Positions 13,010-18,173 of a DNA stretch of 64,000 bases are shown here, piece by piece; position 1 is the first letter of the stretch; each line of letters begins with the position of its first letter. The stretch comes from Ostreococcus lucimarinus (Eukaryota), in NCBI GenBank assembly GCA_000092065.1, contig CP000590.1. The stretch is one strand, 5' to 3'. Made by a program: the position numbers and the translations under genes. The notes beneath the pieces are model-generated. The model was not told the DNA's origin. It was given only the letters and a program-made list of their open reading frames with translations, and ran no database searches.

Positions 13010-14002
13010 TCACGCGCCCGGCGCCGCCGCTGCCGACGTTATGCGAAAGATGACAATTTCTTTGCCTTCGTCTTCGCTGCGTTGCCGATGGAGCGCCTCC
13101 ACCGAGCAACCGGTGCTCTCAAACTCTCGCACGACTTCATTCGTGTGCGGGAAAGCCTTACCGCTCGACGCATCTTCGGTCGAGCTACGGTCGCGCACGC
13201 TTAGGATGAGTTCGCGGACGCCGCTGCGGAGCAACGTCGAGGACGTCGTCACGAATGGAAGCAAAAGCTCTCGCAACCACACGCACTCAGCCGCGATCAA
13301 AATATCGGCGTCTCGAAACGTGAGCGCCGAATTTTGAAACGGATCACTCGGAATTTCATCCATCCAATTTAGCGTCGCGCGCGACGCGCTTCCCGATCCA
13401 ATCCTCGTCGCGTTCGGCCACGCGCCGAGAAGCTCCGTCGCCGGTCCCGCTCCATTCTGTTCGATATTCCTTCGTATCACGTTCTCGCACACCGCGCGCA
13501 CGTCCGTCAAAAGAACGTGCGCACCGAGCGCCGCGCACGCGAGTCCGCATTCCCCCACGCCCGCGCCCAGCTCCAAGACGCGCTCGCCCCTCCCGAGTCC
13601 CGTTCGCTCCAGGTGCGCCGTCAGCGCCTCCGCGCCCTCCCACACCCTCGCGAACCCAGTCGACGCCGCGACGTCGTACCCATCGTCGAAGAAAAACGGA
13701 TCCACCTCCACGTCCTCGTCCTCGTCCCCGTCGTCGTTCGGCTCGACGTCCTTCATCCCGATGCGCAGTTCGTGCACTTTATGCGACTCCGAACCATCCG
13801 CCGCCCGCTCCCGCACGCGCACGCGCTTCGTCCTGTGCCTGTGTCCGCACCCCGCCCACGCGTCTCGCGCGTCCACCGCCGCGCGCGCGGCGTCGCGCGC
13901 CATCGCGTCGCGCCCTGCGGTCGACGCTTCGAGGATTATCCAACCGCGCGAGGTTTTGTCCCGCGCGCGCCGCGCGTCGTCACTCACGCGCGCGCTCGGC
14001 AT
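13010..14002 (-). CDS. Class I SAM-dependent methyltransferase, Methyltransf_16-like (putative protein-lysine methyltransferase)
   Basis: FARVWEGAEALTAHLERTGLGRGERVLELGAGVGECGLACAALGAHVLLTDV (motif I GxGxG plus acidic residue at end of beta2). The start is uncertain: the ORF-track end at 14002 is an alternative start whose ATG shares the CATG tetranucleotide with the ATG of the divergent bioB. Confidence 0.6.
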   Translation of the reverse strand: MPSARVSDDARRARDKTSRGWIILEASTAGRDAMARDAARAAVDARDAWAGCGHRHRTKRVRVRERAADGSESHKVHELRIGMKDVEPNDDGDEDEDVEVDPFFFDDGYDVAASTGFARVWEGAEALTAHLERTGLGRGERVLELGAGVGECGLACAALGAHVLLTDVRAVCENVIRRNIEQNGAGPATELLGAWPNATRIGSGSASRATLNWMDEIPSDPFQNSALTFRDADILIAAECVWLRELLLPFVTTSSTLLRSGVRELILSVRDRSSTEDASSGKAFPHTNEVVREFESTGCSVEALHRQRSEDEGKEIVIFRITSAAAAPGA

Positions 14003-15248: not shown

Positions 15249-16079
15249 CTATCGACCTAACCAACGCGCGAAACGCCTAAAGCGAGCGGCGAAATAATAT
15301 AATTCCTCGTACGCGAACAGCACGACCGGCAAGGTGTAATACGTCGTTCTGTACATCACCAACGCCGAGAGGGACGCAAAAAAACTGCCTTGGATTCCGG
15401 TCAAGTATTGGAAACCGTCCTTCATAAAGTCCAACGCGCTCAGCGCCCAATCACCAGCGCCTACGAGTTTTGCAAACAGCACAAAACCAATCATTCCAAA
15501 CACACTCACGCACATGCACGCCGCGTACGACGAGCAACACGCCAACACAAACATCGCCGCAAACGGGGCGCCGTAAAACCGGATGAAGAATTTCACGACT
15601 TCAAATTTGTTACTATACAGCTCCGCGAACGCCAGCTTCTTGCTGAACGTCCGTCTCCATCGCTCTCGCATCGTGCTCCCGAACGTCTCGTCCGCCCGCG
15701 ACCTGTGGCTGCGATGGAAAGTTCTAAACTCCAGCCCCGCGAGCGCGGCCAACTCTTCCACCGTCGCCGCGCCCCTCGCCGCGAGCGGGACGTCCACCTC
15801 CGCGTCGTCACCGCTCGTCGACGCCCGCGCGCTTTCCCGCTTCTCGCGCGTTCCGACGTCACCGCCTCGGTCACCGTTCCCCACCGCGCGCGTCGTCGAC
15901 GCCGCGAACGCGCGCGCATCCGCGACGCGTCGCCGCGCGTTCGGGACGCTTTGCGCCGCGACTGGAGCTCGCGCGGCGAGCGCGCCGCCGCCGCGCCACG
16001 CGCGCGCGCTCGTCGTCGCGCTCGTTTCGCGCGCGAATCGGGCGAGCGCGCGCGCGAGACGACGCGACGCGGCGGACAT
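15249..16079 (-). CDS. Hypothetical membrane protein with presequence (about 3 C-terminal TM helices)
   Basis: Coding-like third-position bias. C-terminal hydrophobic helices (FAAMFVLACCSSYAACMCVSVFGMIGFVLFAKLVGAG, FFASLSALVMYRTTYYTLPVVLFAY). The first ATG is MSAASRRL at 16077-16079. The ORF-track start at 16145 is a GTG codon. Confidence 0.45.
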   Translation of the reverse strand: MSAASRRLARALARFARETSATTSARAWRGGGALAARAPVAAQSVPNARRRVADARAFAASTTRAVGNGDRGGDVGTREKRESARASTSGDDAEVDVPLAARGAATVEELAALAGLEFRTFHRSHRSRADETFGSTMRERWRRTFSKKLAFAELYSNKFEVVKFFIRFYGAPFAAMFVLACCSSYAACMCVSVFGMIGFVLFAKLVGAGDWALSALDFMKDGFQYLTGIQGSFFASLSALVMYRTTYYTLPVVLFAYEELYYFAARFRRFARWLGR

Positions 16080-16134
16080 CGCGCAGTGACGCGCGCCGAG
16101 CGTTACTTTATGGTACCAAAGGCGCGGAGTTGGA

Positions 16135-17136
16135 TTAAAAGTCACGCGCGCGCTTCTTCTTGCGCGCCTTCGCCTTGGCGGGATCGAAATAAACCCCCGT
16201 CGTGGTCGTCGTGGACTTTTGCGCGCCTTTGAGCATGGCGCGGACTTTGGGATTCGGGCGCTTTTGCAGGCGCTGTTGTTGAGGCAGCGCCTCGTCGAGC
16301 GCGGGGACGGAGCACGACGAGTGCGCGGCGTACTTTTTAAGCCACCACGCGCGCTGCTGCTGCGCGTCCAGGACGCCCGCGAACTCGATGTACCAAAACG
16401 TCTCGAACGGCGTCGTGCCTTTGGCGCGAATCTCGTGACCCTGACGTCCGGGCGCCCAATACCGGTACGGCTTGGCGTCGTCGGGAATGAGAAACAGCGG
16501 TTTCGCCGCGTCGCCGATGGACGGGGCGTAGTACGATTTCCTGCACACGAAATTCGGCAAAAGCAAAAGCCACGGTTTATTACTGTCGCGACAATACGAC
16601 AAAATTCGCTTGAAATGATCGCCAGAGTACGGAGGATTGGTCACCAGCACGTCGAACTCTGGCGTCGATTTCGTCGCCACCTTTTCGTAAAAGTCCTCAT
16701 TCCGATTGTACACGTTCTCGAACCCGAGGGCGTTGAGGTGGGCCACCATGGAGCCTTCGCAATAATACGGATCGTATATTCGCAGCGTCTTCTTTTCTTT
16801 CTTCATCGCTTTCGCCAGATTAAACAAAAACGGTTCCACGTCGCGGTACGCTCTAAACGGCGTCTCGCAGTGGTCCGCCTCATCCGCGTCCGCGAACGCC
16901 AGCGCCGCCTTCGTCGCCGGCGTGACGACCCCGCTCGACTTCACCGACAGGTGCGCGAGCACTCTCTCGCGCTTCGCGCGCTTCGTCGACTTCGCGCGTC
17001 GCTTCGGTTCCGCCGAGCGCTTTTCGCCCTCGCGCGCGCCGTCGCCCTCGCGCGTCGCGCCGCCCTCGCGCGACGTCGACGACGCCCCACCGCGATTGTG
17101 AGATTTCACGCGCGCGTCCTCGTCGCGCGCGGGCAT
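16135..17136 (-). CDS. NPPY-motif amino-methyltransferase (TaqI/HemK-like gamma-class order: DPxCxGS motif I then NPPY motif IV); putative N6-adenine MTase with basic NLS-like N-terminus
   Basis: RIYDPYYCEGSMVAHLNALGF (motif I-like), then about 50 aa later FDVLVTNPPYS (motif IV). The N-terminal 70 aa are Lys/Arg-rich (KRRAKSTKRAKRER). The substrate (DNA, RNA or protein glutamine) cannot be decided from sequence. Confidence 0.55.
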   Translation of the reverse strand: MPARDEDARVKSHNRGGASSTSREGGATREGDGAREGEKRSAEPKRRAKSTKRAKRERVLAHLSVKSSGVVTPATKAALAFADADEADHCETPFRAYRDVEPFLFNLAKAMKKEKKTLRIYDPYYCEGSMVAHLNALGFENVYNRNEDFYEKVATKSTPEFDVLVTNPPYSGDHFKRILSYCRDSNKPWLLLLPNFVCRKSYYAPSIGDAAKPLFLIPDDAKPYRYWAPGRQGHEIRAKGTTPFETFWYIEFAGVLDAQQQRAWWLKKYAAHSSCSVPALDEALPQQQRLQKRPNPKVRAMLKGAQKSTTTTTGVYFDPAKAKARKKKRARDF

Positions 17137-17264: not shown

Positions 17265-18173
17265 ATGGTGGACTACTCAAAGTTCGATCGCATCGTCGCC
17301 GACGCGAGCGACGACGAGGACGAGGCGCGAACGCGCGCGACGCCGAACGTGACGAGACTGGATGCTGGGACGAAAATCACATTCGGAAACGGACGCGCGA
17401 CGATCGCGACGCGCGCGGACGCGGACGACGACGACGACGGCGATCGCCGGGAGCGCGACGCGGACGCGCGCGGCGCGAACGAGGGCGCGGAGGGGACGAT
17501 GAGCGAACGGGAGCTGCGCGCGGCGCTCGAGGCTCGGGACGCGGCGGCGGCGCGGGACGCGGCGCGAGCGACGCCGAGCGCGCGCGGCGACGACGTCGCC
17601 GGCGCGCGAGGCGCGAATCGGGAGACGTGTTTGACGAAGATGACGCGGAACGGTGGGGTGGTTCTGGACGCCGGGACGAAGGAGGAGCGGTATTATTGGC
17701 GGCAGGACGCGAGCGAGGCGACGCTGAGCGTCGTCGTGGCGCCCGGGACCAAGGCGAAGGACGCGCGCGTGCGCGTGACGGCGACGGAGGTGGAGATCAG
17801 TGTGCTGAATCGCGAGACCGGGGCGAGTGAGGTGGTCTTACGAGGTGAGTGGGCGCATGAGATCGACCCCGAGCCGCGCGACGAGGACGACGAGTACGCG
17901 CCGACGACGTTCGGCGACTGGGAAATCACAGATTTTGAAGGCGCGGACGCGCGTCGCGTCGTGCGCGTCACCGTGCGCAAAAAAGCTTCCCAAATGTTGA
18001 CGCACTGGTGGCGCTCGTGCATCAAAGGCGCGCCCGAGGAGGATCCCTCGACGTTTGAGGATCGAAATTCGTCTCGCGCGGAAGCCGGGCGTCGCGCGTG
18101 GGAGGAAGCGCAGGAAATGTTTCGCGAGCGCGTGAAAACCCGGGAAAAAGTCGAAATCGACGCGCACGATTAA
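17265..18173 (+). CDS. CS (p23/HSP20-like) domain protein with acidic N-terminal region
   Basis: Beta-sandwich CS-domain-like segment RYYWRQDASEATLSVVVAPGTKAKDARVRVTATEVEISVLNRETGASEVVLRGEWAHEIDPE...DWEI. Asp/Glu/Arg-rich N-terminus. Good codon bias. Confidence 0.5.
   Translation: MVDYSKFDRIVADASDDEDEARTRATPNVTRLDAGTKITFGNGRATIATRADADDDDDGDRRERDADARGANEGAEGTMSERELRAALEARDAAAARDAARATPSARGDDVAGARGANRETCLTKMTRNGGVVLDAGTKEERYYWRQDASEATLSVVVAPGTKAKDARVRVTATEVEISVLNRETGASEVVLRGEWAHEIDPEPRDEDDEYAPTTFGDWEITDFEGADARRVVRVTVRKKASQMLTHWWRSCIKGAPEEDPSTFEDRNSSRAEAGRRAWEEAQEMFRERVKTREKVEIDAHD

Follow-up and report, generated by a model that had tools for sequence, protein, structure and literature searches.

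Positions 16135..17136 of a 64,000-nucleotide stretch of the Ostreococcus lucimarinus genome (contig CP000590.1; hereafter the window) hold, on the minus strand, a single open reading frame that runs uninterrupted from ATG to stop and encodes a protein of 333 amino acids (aa). We found that this protein belongs to a large algal family for which no Pfam model exists and of which no member has been characterised. Judging from its motifs and remote homologies, it is a gamma-class (EcoKI/TaqI-like) methyltransferase, a eukaryotic offshoot of the M.EcoRI/phrog_799 branch, and it is probably catalytically active, methylating adenine at N6 in a nucleic acid. Our preferred, still tentative reading of its function is that of a nuclear N6-adenine methyltransferase for which RNA is the favoured substrate over DNA, and which probably does not write the N6-methyladenine (6mA) found at ApT sites close to transcription start sites (TSS).

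The complete single-exon coding sequence (333 aa plus stop) encodes a protein identical to XP_001420081.1, ABO98374.1 and UniProt A4S3E5 of O. lucimarinus CCE9901. Databases label it only as a “predicted protein”, and a literature search for XP_001420081, A4S3E5 and ABO98374 found no paper naming it. Contigs in 882 blocks of public assemblies carry a called gene whose product exactly matches the 333-aa sequence, and O. lucimarinus XP_001420081.1 falls in the 90% cluster of this protein.

A large algal family with conserved catalytic motifs

A search of the family profile against 1.84 billion cluster representatives recovered, at E<=1e-3, 2,698 clusters defined at 50% identity, of which 944 reached E<=1e-30; a word-indexed protein search returned 510 relatives. 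None of these relatives has an informative name or a Pfam domain assigned by precomputation. Since the search lists were nearly nameless, the taxonomy was assembled from cluster members. Wherever a taxon was recorded it was an alga, spanning prasinophytes (Ostreococcus, Bathycoccus and Pterosperma), haptophytes (Diacronema and Pavlovales), a cryptophyte (Guillardia, G. theta) and ochrophytes (Ectocarpus, Hapterophycus, Triparma, Chaetoceros, Heterosigma and Epipyxis). No animal, fungal, land-plant, Chlamydomonas or core-chlorophyte names occurred among the best 120 matches of three protein searches.

Identity across supergroups is 35-55% over ~225 residues. In an alignment of 28 sequences, the invariant positions were D88 and E91 in motif X, Y121, D122, P123 and C126 in motif I, N144, D148 and Y150 in motif II/III, D162, T166, N167, P168 and P169 at motif IV, P194 in the motif VI region, and F244 in the motif VIII-like cluster. 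The elements conserved invariantly or nearly so across the family can be written as D88-H-C-E91-T-P...A-Y, Y121-D-P-x-x-C126-x-G, N144, D148-F-Y150, D162-x-x-x-T-N-P-P169, K-P-x-L-L-L-P194 and T-x-P-F244-x-x-x-W. The catalytic motif is NPPY in 210 of 246 members and NPPF in 29 (together 239/246). As read from these alignments, the pattern is one of purifying selection for catalysis, and because the motifs are invariant or near-invariant across so deep a family, we do not regard them as chance matches.

Motif order and predicted fold

The putative catalytic Rossmann-fold core spans aa 86-252 (16381..16881; all protein features given here and below lie on the minus strand). It is modelled mostly with pLDDT (predicted local distance difference test) values >90 and aligns end to end with 165-aa viral mini-methyltransferases. 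The motif order is unpermuted (X, I, II/III, IV, VI, VIII), with motif I upstream of NPPY. A first-pass annotation of the window, made from the sequence alone, had described an NPPY methyltransferase with gamma-class motif order in which DPYYCEGS precedes TNPPYS by about 50 residues. We confirmed both the class and the order: motif I (DPYYCEGS) occupies aa 122-129 and motif IV (TNPPYS) aa 166-171, the spacing from D122 to N167 being 45 residues, and a hand check showed that the reverse complement of 16624-16653 translates as DVLVTNPPYS. The statement that the enzyme is not of the MT-A70 type was equally sound, as NPPY lies downstream of motif I, rather than DPPW in a permuted order, and no MT-A70 Pfam match was found at E<=10.

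Motif X, at aa 88-97 (DHCETPFRAY; 16846..16875), marks the start of the N-terminal helix (94-110 by DSSP). Besides its two invariant residues, T92, A96 and Y97 are present in >=90% of sequences; its counterparts are DEFYT in M.EcoRI and (F/Y)(F/Y)TP in HsdM. Strand 1 and motif I, the S-adenosylmethionine (AdoMet) loop, follow at aa 119-129 (RIYDPYYCEGS; 16750..16782), and the end of strand 2 with motif II/III at aa 142-150 (VYNRNEDFY; 16687..16713), which aligns with GDGDFRS of the EcoRI family. Strand 4 and the catalytic motif IV occupy aa 162-171 (DVLVTNPPYS; 16624..16653). Strand 5 and the motif VI region (aa 187-200, KPWLLLLPNFVCRK; 16537..16578) align with KKFLIIGNxNxITYK of the EcoRI family and with KPFxLLMP of the viral mini-methyltransferases. 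Finally, strand 7 carries a motif VIII-like aromatic cluster at aa 241-249 (TTPFETFWY; 16390..16416), in which T241, P243 and W248 are conserved at >=90%, and which aligns with WFDTxW in the viral proteins and CWFTNLD in the EcoRI family. The viral homologues stop straight after motif VIII. We found no target-recognition module beyond this point in the algal protein, whose C-terminal 80 aa are short, partly disordered, basic and devoid of a Pfam domain.

We modelled the protein with AlphaFold2 from the family alignment and assigned secondary structure with DSSP. Most residues of aa 91-230 and 251-280 had a pLDDT above 90, and the disordered tails lowered the overall mean to 78. The model contains the N-terminal helix 94-110 and strands 1, 2, 4, 5, 6 and 7 of a class-I methyltransferase, that is, the topology of the seven-stranded type without strand 3. 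Between strand 2 (142-143) and strand 4 (163-166), DSSP assigns only a six-residue helix (149-154) in the predicted structure. Degeneration of the helices around strand 3 is a trait of the EcoKI/TaqI-type Group 2 (Iyer, Zhang & Aravind 2016, PMC4738411), and the short strand-3 region of our model is consistent with it. The gamma-class N-terminal helix is also present in the model, preceded by D88, E91 and T92, in a segment that aligns with EFFTP/EFYTP of HsdM-type proteins. A Foldseek search against the BFVD viral structures gave weak matches only.

Remote homology to M.EcoRI through viral mini-methyltransferases

Sequence searches against Pfam, NCBIfam, PADLOC and the PDB returned only sub-threshold matches confined to the motif IV/NPPY region, among them Eco57I, N6_Mtase, EcoRI_methylase, RsmD and PrmC. 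The N6_Mtase, MTS, Eco57I and HemK models that the first-pass annotation had suggested for comparison thus do match, but all of them below threshold and locally at motif IV. EcoRI_methylase (PF13651) scored 12.1 bits against a gathering threshold of 26.4 (E 0.12), over aa 142-189 only, and similar sub-threshold PF13651 matches were seen in 4/28 family members.

Profile comparisons with hhalign aligned the algal family to the M.EcoRI family with 88% probability (E 3e-6; 109 columns, motifs III-VIII) and to the viral mini-methyltransferases with 99.8% (E 4.6e-30; 142 columns), while the viral set aligned to the EcoRI family with 96% (E 3e-9). Because the viral proteins align to both, they bridge the homology between the algal and EcoRI families. 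They also match phrog_799, annotated “DNA methyltransferase”, at 1e-13 to 1e-19, and the Ostreococcus protein matches it directly at 2.1e-6. A graded series is seen in the N-terminal motif: DEFYT in M.EcoRI and some viral proteins, then DECYTP and DDDYETP in viral proteins, and DHCETP in the algal family. When the combined algal and viral profile was searched against the PDB, motifs X and I aligned with EFFTP...IYDPAAGSGS of EcoR124 HsdM. The algal protein is not filed as a PF13651 member, since its score is below the Pfam threshold and neither the insertion nor the C-terminal region specific to EcoRI is present. A literature search for PF13651 in eukaryotic cells found nothing.

The mini-methyltransferases are core-only proteins of 165-170 aa encoded at IMG/VR loci L010-L032 (for example L010:729-1226, L018:5959-6468 and L023:5947-6444), on AT-rich contigs of 27-40% GC. 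Their neighbours include a borderline match to the Sputnik V18/19 minor capsid protein (26.4 bits, cut-off 27), an A32-like ATPase, a GIY-YIG nuclease, a DUF5906 primase-helicase, a collagen-repeat protein, a ribonucleotide reductase small subunit and a weak match to the Capsid_N type of nucleocytoplasmic large DNA viruses. Overall, these contigs look like virophages or polinton-like viruses (PLVs) of protists rather than phages. In several of the mini-methyltransferases, SN-I-PFS or SN-R-PFS replaces NPPF, so that part of the viral set may, by this substitution, have altered or lost activity.

Scanning GTDB with motif patterns revealed a single bacterial relative, a decayed EcoRI-family gene in Streptobacillus; the degenerate patterns used were too family-specific to recover distant bacterial cognates. 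This fragment is a clear PF13651 EcoRI_methylase (E 2.9e-41) beside a decayed C5 methyltransferase. Its locus (L005:7700-9650, Streptobacillus notomytis LJRV01000101.1) resembles a decayed restriction-modification (R-M) system, with a truncated 146-aa EcoRI-family methyltransferase, a C5 cytosine methyltransferase fragmented by in-frame stops and then an AAA_21/SMC-like ATPase gene. Full-length EcoRI-family genes for comparison were taken from plasmids, including M.EcoRI beside the EcoRI endonuclease. At three loci on plasmids of Lactobacillales and Staphylococcaceae (L006, 1934-4106; L007, 1186-3281; L009, 802-2981), the EcoRI-family methyltransferase is followed by an overlapping or abutting DUF262 gene in place of an EcoRI-type endonuclease, a pairing that suggests a different kind of methyltransferase-nuclease module.

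The same searches bear on two other classes of enzyme that share the NPPY motif or its surroundings. Orthology to HemK2/N6AMT1 or to an N2-methylguanosine (m2G) enzyme, the outcomes that the first-pass annotation had set against its own proposal, did not emerge: HemK2/PrmC (TIGR03534) scored 14.6 bits against a cut-off of 199.1, and RsmD (TIGR00095) 15.2 against 117.5 (E 0.013), locally. A protein methyltransferase, modifying a glutamine amide in the manner of HemK/Mtq2 or a lysine or N-terminal amine of, for example, a ribosomal or nuclear protein, is an improbable identity for the algal enzyme. It would explain the NPPY motif, common to HemK, PrmC and PrmB, the small size without a nucleic-acid recognition domain, and the weak local NCBIfam match to PrmC (E 0.017) and PDB profile matches to HemK (E 2.5). 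However, the PrmC score lies far from its cut-off, the motif X helix with ETP is a trait of the nucleic-acid branch, as is homology to M.EcoRI, HsdM and phrog_799, and the CCCH fusions described below point toward RNA. Marginally less probable still is an RNA guanine-N2 methyltransferase of the RsmC/RsmD/Trm11 kind, acting on rRNA, tRNA or snRNA. Sub-threshold local matches to RsmD, Cons_hypoth95 and MTS speak for it, as does the best PDB profile match, to the RsmD-like HI0767 (E 0.0047). Yet these matches cover only the neighbourhood of motif IV and stay well short of the family cut-offs, whereas full-length homology leads to the EcoRI/phrog_799 adenine methyltransferases, and the THUMP, PUA or duplicated domains usual in m2G enzymes are absent.

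Basic tails and fused domains

The core is flanked by extensions that are missing from the viral proteins. At the N-terminus, a disordered (pLDDT <50), net-neutral tail rich in Gly, Arg and Glu (aa 1-44; 17005..17136) leads into the basic cluster KRRAKSTKRAKRER at aa 45-58 (16963..17004), which lies at the start of a predicted helix (H48-61) and carries a net charge of +8 over aa 45-60. We consider this cluster a candidate nuclear localisation signal (NLS) and/or nucleic-acid-binding arm. The strongly basic N-terminus had been recognised in the first-pass annotation, and it proved to be a property of the family: of 327 members, 91% have K[KR]x[KR] before the domain, and in 80% some 15-residue window of the N-terminal tail holds >=7 K/R. 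The median length of this tail in the algal proteins is 87-100 aa.

The eukaryote-specific C-terminal extension (aa 253-333; 16138..16380) comprises a helix at 258-268 (WWLKKY), the conserved P285, a KRPNPKVR motif at aa 292-299 (16240-16263) and a terminal basic cluster at aa 321-333 (16138-16176). The basic stretch from aa 286 to 333, ending in KAKARKKKRARDF, has a net charge of +13 and went unmentioned in the earlier annotation. Across the family, this extension conserves WWxKK, LP and KRxNPxxRxR elements and contains a basic motif in 221/250 members. Relative to the viral core, the algal proteins have thus added both tails, a 10-residue helix extension after motif X and a longer strand 6-7 loop.

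Such family-wide basic tails fit nuclear localisation, as far as sequence can indicate it. Plastid or secretory targeting was considered and rejected: a hydrophobic, signal-peptide-like N-terminus is found in only 2% of the 327 members, and signal peptides are missing from the ochrophyte ones.

Among the 118 longest members, we found no recurrent Pfam domain, chromatin reader, DNA-binding or KH domain. A CCCH zinc finger is present in 3/448 members. In two of them, P0138 (22.3 bits) and P0148 (29.1 bits), the finger is N-terminal and scores above the 20.5-bit Pfam cut-off; in the third, Pterosperma P0103, it is internal and scores just below (19.8 bits).

One further gene model is unusual. P0155 (GCA_916048055.1, L035:3001-7226) is an 815-aa multi-exon model that joins an SDE2 C-terminal domain, the methyltransferase and a complete Fpg/H2TH glycosylase. 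It is possibly a true fusion linked to DNA repair, or possibly a merge of three adjacent genes. As a lone multi-exon model that may combine neighbouring genes, it was set aside as evidence for a role in DNA repair.

Relation to the 6mA pathway

Part of the case for a 6mA writer was that the enzyme responsible in green algae was regarded as unresolved, a premise that does not hold. Nanopore sequencing of 18 protists detected robust 6mA only in species that encode AMT1 (Romero Charria et al. 2025, PMC12695648). In these species, including O. tauri and M. pusilla, the mark is symmetric, at ApT and located just downstream of the TSS, and in M. pusilla and O. tauri it replaces 5-methylcytosine on the first nucleosome linkers of active genes (PMC12695648); 6mA in these two algae tracks AMT1. 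Supplementary Table 1 of that study has columns for AMT1, AMT6/7, AMT2/5, METTL4, METTL3 and METTL14 (PMC12695648). O. tauri and M. pusilla are scored with AMT1 only, without AMT6/7, METTL3, METTL14 or METTL4, and Guillardia theta, Ectocarpus siliculosus, Phaeodactylum and Thalassiosira without any of the six MT-A70 families (PMC12695648). Phaeodactylum (P. tricornutum) is an AMT1-less control without 6mA (PMC12695648).

The algal family is present in the MT-A70-less Guillardia and Ectocarpus, and in addition in the diatom genus Chaetoceros. Because it occurs in the former two, its distribution is out of step with the 6mA pathway. In Ostreococcus, the TSS-proximal ApT 6mA is probably attributable to AMT1 and not written by the algal enzyme, and since ApT 6mA tracks AMT1, no orphan DNA 6mA signal is left for the algal enzyme to explain. 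With the AMT1 writer known and the family found in lineages without the pathway, the main motive for reading the enzyme as a 6mA writer is removed. What survives of that proposal is the NPPY gamma-class amino-methyltransferase with a basic N-terminus; the tie of ApT 6mA to AMT1 and the family's occurrence in MT-A70-less algae count against the role of 6mA writer.

The AMT1 evidence leaves room for a minor or specialised role of the algal enzyme on DNA. It could be a second nuclear 6mA writer, acting on non-ApT sites or on single-stranded, replication- or repair-associated DNA, or else a DNA N6-adenine methyltransferase of low specificity. Either way it would resemble the viral mini-homologues in modifying DNA with no recognition domain of its own. 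We judge this unlikely, while treating it as a serious alternative. The closest characterised relative, M.EcoRI, is a DNA methyltransferase, and the viral mini-homologues belong to phrog_799 and are encoded by virophage/PLV-like contigs, for which modifying DNA is the obvious function. The basic tails and probable NLS would suit a nuclear DNA enzyme, P0155 combines the domain with SDE2 and an Fpg glycosylase, and AA-context 6mA, which reaches an “appreciable level” in AMT1-encoding species, is merely presumed to be AMT1 off-target methylation (PMC12695648). Against this stand the restriction of robust 6mA to symmetric ApT in AMT1-encoding species (PMC12695648), and the occurrence of the family in Guillardia, Ectocarpus and a diatom genus, the sole sequenced diatom (P. 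tricornutum) being without 6mA. Moreover, the protein lacks a target-recognition domain, none of the 118 longest members has a chromatin-reader or DNA-binding fusion, the sole recurrent fusion is an RNA-type CCCH finger, and the SDE2-Fpg fusion comes from one multi-exon model, in which neighbouring genes may have been merged.

Proposed mechanism and substrate

We infer catalytic activity, adenine-N6 as the target, nuclear localisation and the preference for RNA over DNA from what the analysis shows, namely the open reading frame, the motifs with their conservation, the predicted fold, the remote homology, the architecture and the recorded taxa. Following the established chemistry of [DNSH]PP[YFW] enzymes, AdoMet would be bound by the Y-D-P-Y-Y-C-x-G loop after strand 1, together with N144 at the end of strand 2 and D148-F149, while the N-terminal helix (ETPxxAY) would brace N167. 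With Y170 of NPPY on one side and the aromatic residues of the TxPFxxFWY strand on the other, a flipped-out adenine would be held by stacking and methylated at its N6 amino group. The K/R-rich tails around the ~165-residue core would probably provide nuclear import and a non-specific affinity for nucleic acids, taking the place of a target-recognition domain. The substrate would then be a nuclear nucleic acid, either RNA or another single-stranded or structured target, rather than bulk genomic DNA.

RNA is favoured because some members carry CCCH fusions, because chromatin or DNA-reader fusions are missing among the 118 longest members and the protein has no target-recognition domain, because the family is strongly conserved across supergroups, because Ostreococcus shows no unexplained DNA 6mA signal, and because the family is found in MT-A70-less lineages, a diatom genus among them. 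Several points weigh against this preference. For every family member, we infer the substrate entirely. M.EcoRI, the nearest characterised relative, is a DNA methyltransferase and phrog_799, the nearest viral family, is annotated as one, which makes DNA the phylogenetically conservative guess, and the CCCH fusions are rare (3/448), with no KH fusion seen. Methylation of DNA that is low-level, non-ApT, organellar or directed at viruses would escape the analysis of PMC12695648. The diatom evidence comes from the genus Chaetoceros, while the diatom shown to lack 6mA is P. tricornutum. In addition, Foldseek gave only weak matches in the PDB, the best being RlmJ at a TM-score of ~0.3.

A bolder version of our proposal, which we regard as a long shot, is that a domesticated virophage or polinton-like mini-methyltransferase has become a new eukaryotic writer of N6-methyladenosine (m6A) in RNA, or of its DNA counterpart, in algae without MT-A70 enzymes. 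If true, the writer would need no recognition domain and would rely on basic tails or, in a few members, on a CCCH finger. The absence of MT-A70 enzymes from Guillardia and Ectocarpus, and of METTL3, METTL14 and METTL4 from Ostreococcus and Micromonas, would then be a gap that such a writer could fill.

Whatever its substrate, the family places an intact predicted N6-adenine methyltransferase active site in ecologically dominant marine algae. It is a candidate for any m6A (in RNA) or non-AMT1 6mA (in DNA) of the carrier species, several of which lack METTL3/METTL14, the canonical m6A writer of mRNA, and the viral link suggests how the enzyme may have reached algal genomes. If its role proves to be ordinary modification of rRNA or snRNA, the catalogue of RNA modifications would gain a routine entry. 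Ostreococcus tauri is amenable to targeted gene knockout. The gene was already known as a hypothetical protein, as was its kind, a gamma-class N6-adenine methyltransferase acquired by eukaryotes from mobile elements, and this kind was probably catalogued already in 2016. The connection to M.EcoRI/phrog_799 and to virophage/PLV-like proteins, the family size, the algal distribution, the basic tails and the occurrence in MT-A70-less algae are new here.

Genomic locus

The methyltransferase gene is native to the Ostreococcus nuclear genome: its GC content at third codon positions (GC3), 0.78, lies within the range of neighbouring genes (0.76-0.81), and ordinary housekeeping genes surround it, namely those for VPS4, biotin synthase, a Methyltransf_16 protein, ESF2, a PfkB kinase and aminopeptidase N. 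The same two observations led us to reject a recent viral or bacterial insertion. They also bear on whether the gene is a domesticated remnant of a virus or mobile element that has no consequential host substrate, or an inactive scaffold. This is very improbable. Its nearest non-cellular relatives are indeed virophage/PLV-like mini-methyltransferases and R-M or plasmid methyltransferases, and named members are patchy among algae. Nevertheless, at 35-55% identity between chlorophytes, haptophytes, cryptophytes and ochrophytes the motifs for catalysis and AdoMet binding stay invariant, composition and context are native, and the family has gained conserved eukaryote-specific extensions.

No second methyltransferase paralogue of this family was found in the 64-kb window, and synteny with a more distant Mamiellales orthologue (P0251) was not conserved. 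The genes are tightly packed. The ATG of the next minus-strand gene, at 16079, lies 55 bp past the methyltransferase stop codon (16135); this gene, within window positions 15249-16134, encodes a 276-aa product with a hydrophobic C-terminal half and no Pfam match. On the other side, a divergent open reading frame at 17265-18173 encodes an acidic 302-aa protein without a Pfam match and begins 128 bp from the methyltransferase ATG; the two probably share a bidirectional promoter. About 2 kb away, 13010-14002 (minus strand) holds an unrelated second methyltransferase gene, of the Pfam Methyltransf_16 (protein-lysine methyltransferase) family, whose closeness is probably coincidental. Many further open reading frames of 100-480 aa overlie real genes in other frames or on the opposite strand between 13500 and 20500, on both strands; these Arg/Ala-rich frames are artefacts of the 62-68% GC content and not genes.

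Comparison with known systems

The viral mini-methyltransferases resemble the algal protein over the whole core, with DDDYETP, IYDPFYCxG, NExEDxF, SNPPFS, KPFxLLMP, IIPxKRYxF and WFDTxW as their motifs. They differ in that identity is only 25-38% and that both terminal extensions are missing, as is the lengthening of the helix by 10 aa that follows motif X.

M.EcoRI and its family (PF13651; PADLOC MTase_II, PDLC03297) share the unpermuted gamma-class order, an N-terminal D-x-x-(Y/E)-T followed by a short segment (~18 aa in EcoRI, ~25 aa in the algal protein) and motif I, and a motif I that is not glycine-rich and contains D-P (CNCDDP in EcoRI, YDPYYC in the alga). Further correspondences are GDGDF with NEDFY, DIVVTNPPFS with DVLVTNPPYS, and KKFLIIxNxNxITYK with KPWLLLLPNFVCRK. 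Unlike the algal protein, the EcoRI family has an insertion of ~60 aa between motifs I and III and a C-terminal region of ~100 aa. Its members belong to R-M systems or plasmids and methylate GAATTC in DNA, whereas the algal protein is encoded by a stand-alone nuclear-genome gene and has basic tails.

A catalogue of eukaryotic N6-adenine methyltransferases describes a Group-2 clade 3, with CHLREDRAFT_205675 of Chlamydomonas as its type (Iyer, Zhang & Aravind 2016, PMC4738411). This clade occurs widely among microbial eukaryotes, is frequently fused to CCCH and KH domains and often present as two paralogues per genome (PMC4738411). Its bacterial cognates lie on mobile elements, sometimes beside C5 methyltransferases, and RNA methylation was predicted for it, at least in part (PMC4738411). 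The algal family shares the N-terminal helix, the occurrence in diverse microbial eukaryotes and some CCCH fusions, and the decayed Streptobacillus locus is our one example of a cognate near a C5 methyltransferase. In contrast to the clade, CCCH fusions are rare here (3/448), KH domains are absent from the 118 longest members and no Chlamydomonas name occurs among the matches listed. Compared by description only, the algal family fits clade 3 in outline.

M.TaqI and the type I HsdM subunits (N6_Mtase, Eco57I) have large C-terminal or separate target-recognition modules, and their matches to the algal protein are local and sub-threshold. METTL5/PH1948, which forms m6A1832 of 18S rRNA, and PCIF1/CAPAM, which forms N6,2'-O-dimethyladenosine (m6Am) at the cap, show no sequence-family match with the algal protein, whose motif I is not glycine-rich and which has no WW domain.

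The AMT1/MTA1 complex of the MT-A70 group, the established writer of 6mA in eukaryotic DNA, is likewise a predicted nuclear N6-adenine methyltransferase present in Ostreococcus. It is, however, a circularly permuted beta-class enzyme with DPPW and partner subunits, and accounts for ApT 6mA, whereas the algal enzyme is of the unpermuted Group-2 type. AMT1 (Group 1) and the algal family represent different branches of the amino-methyltransferases with different phyletic distributions.

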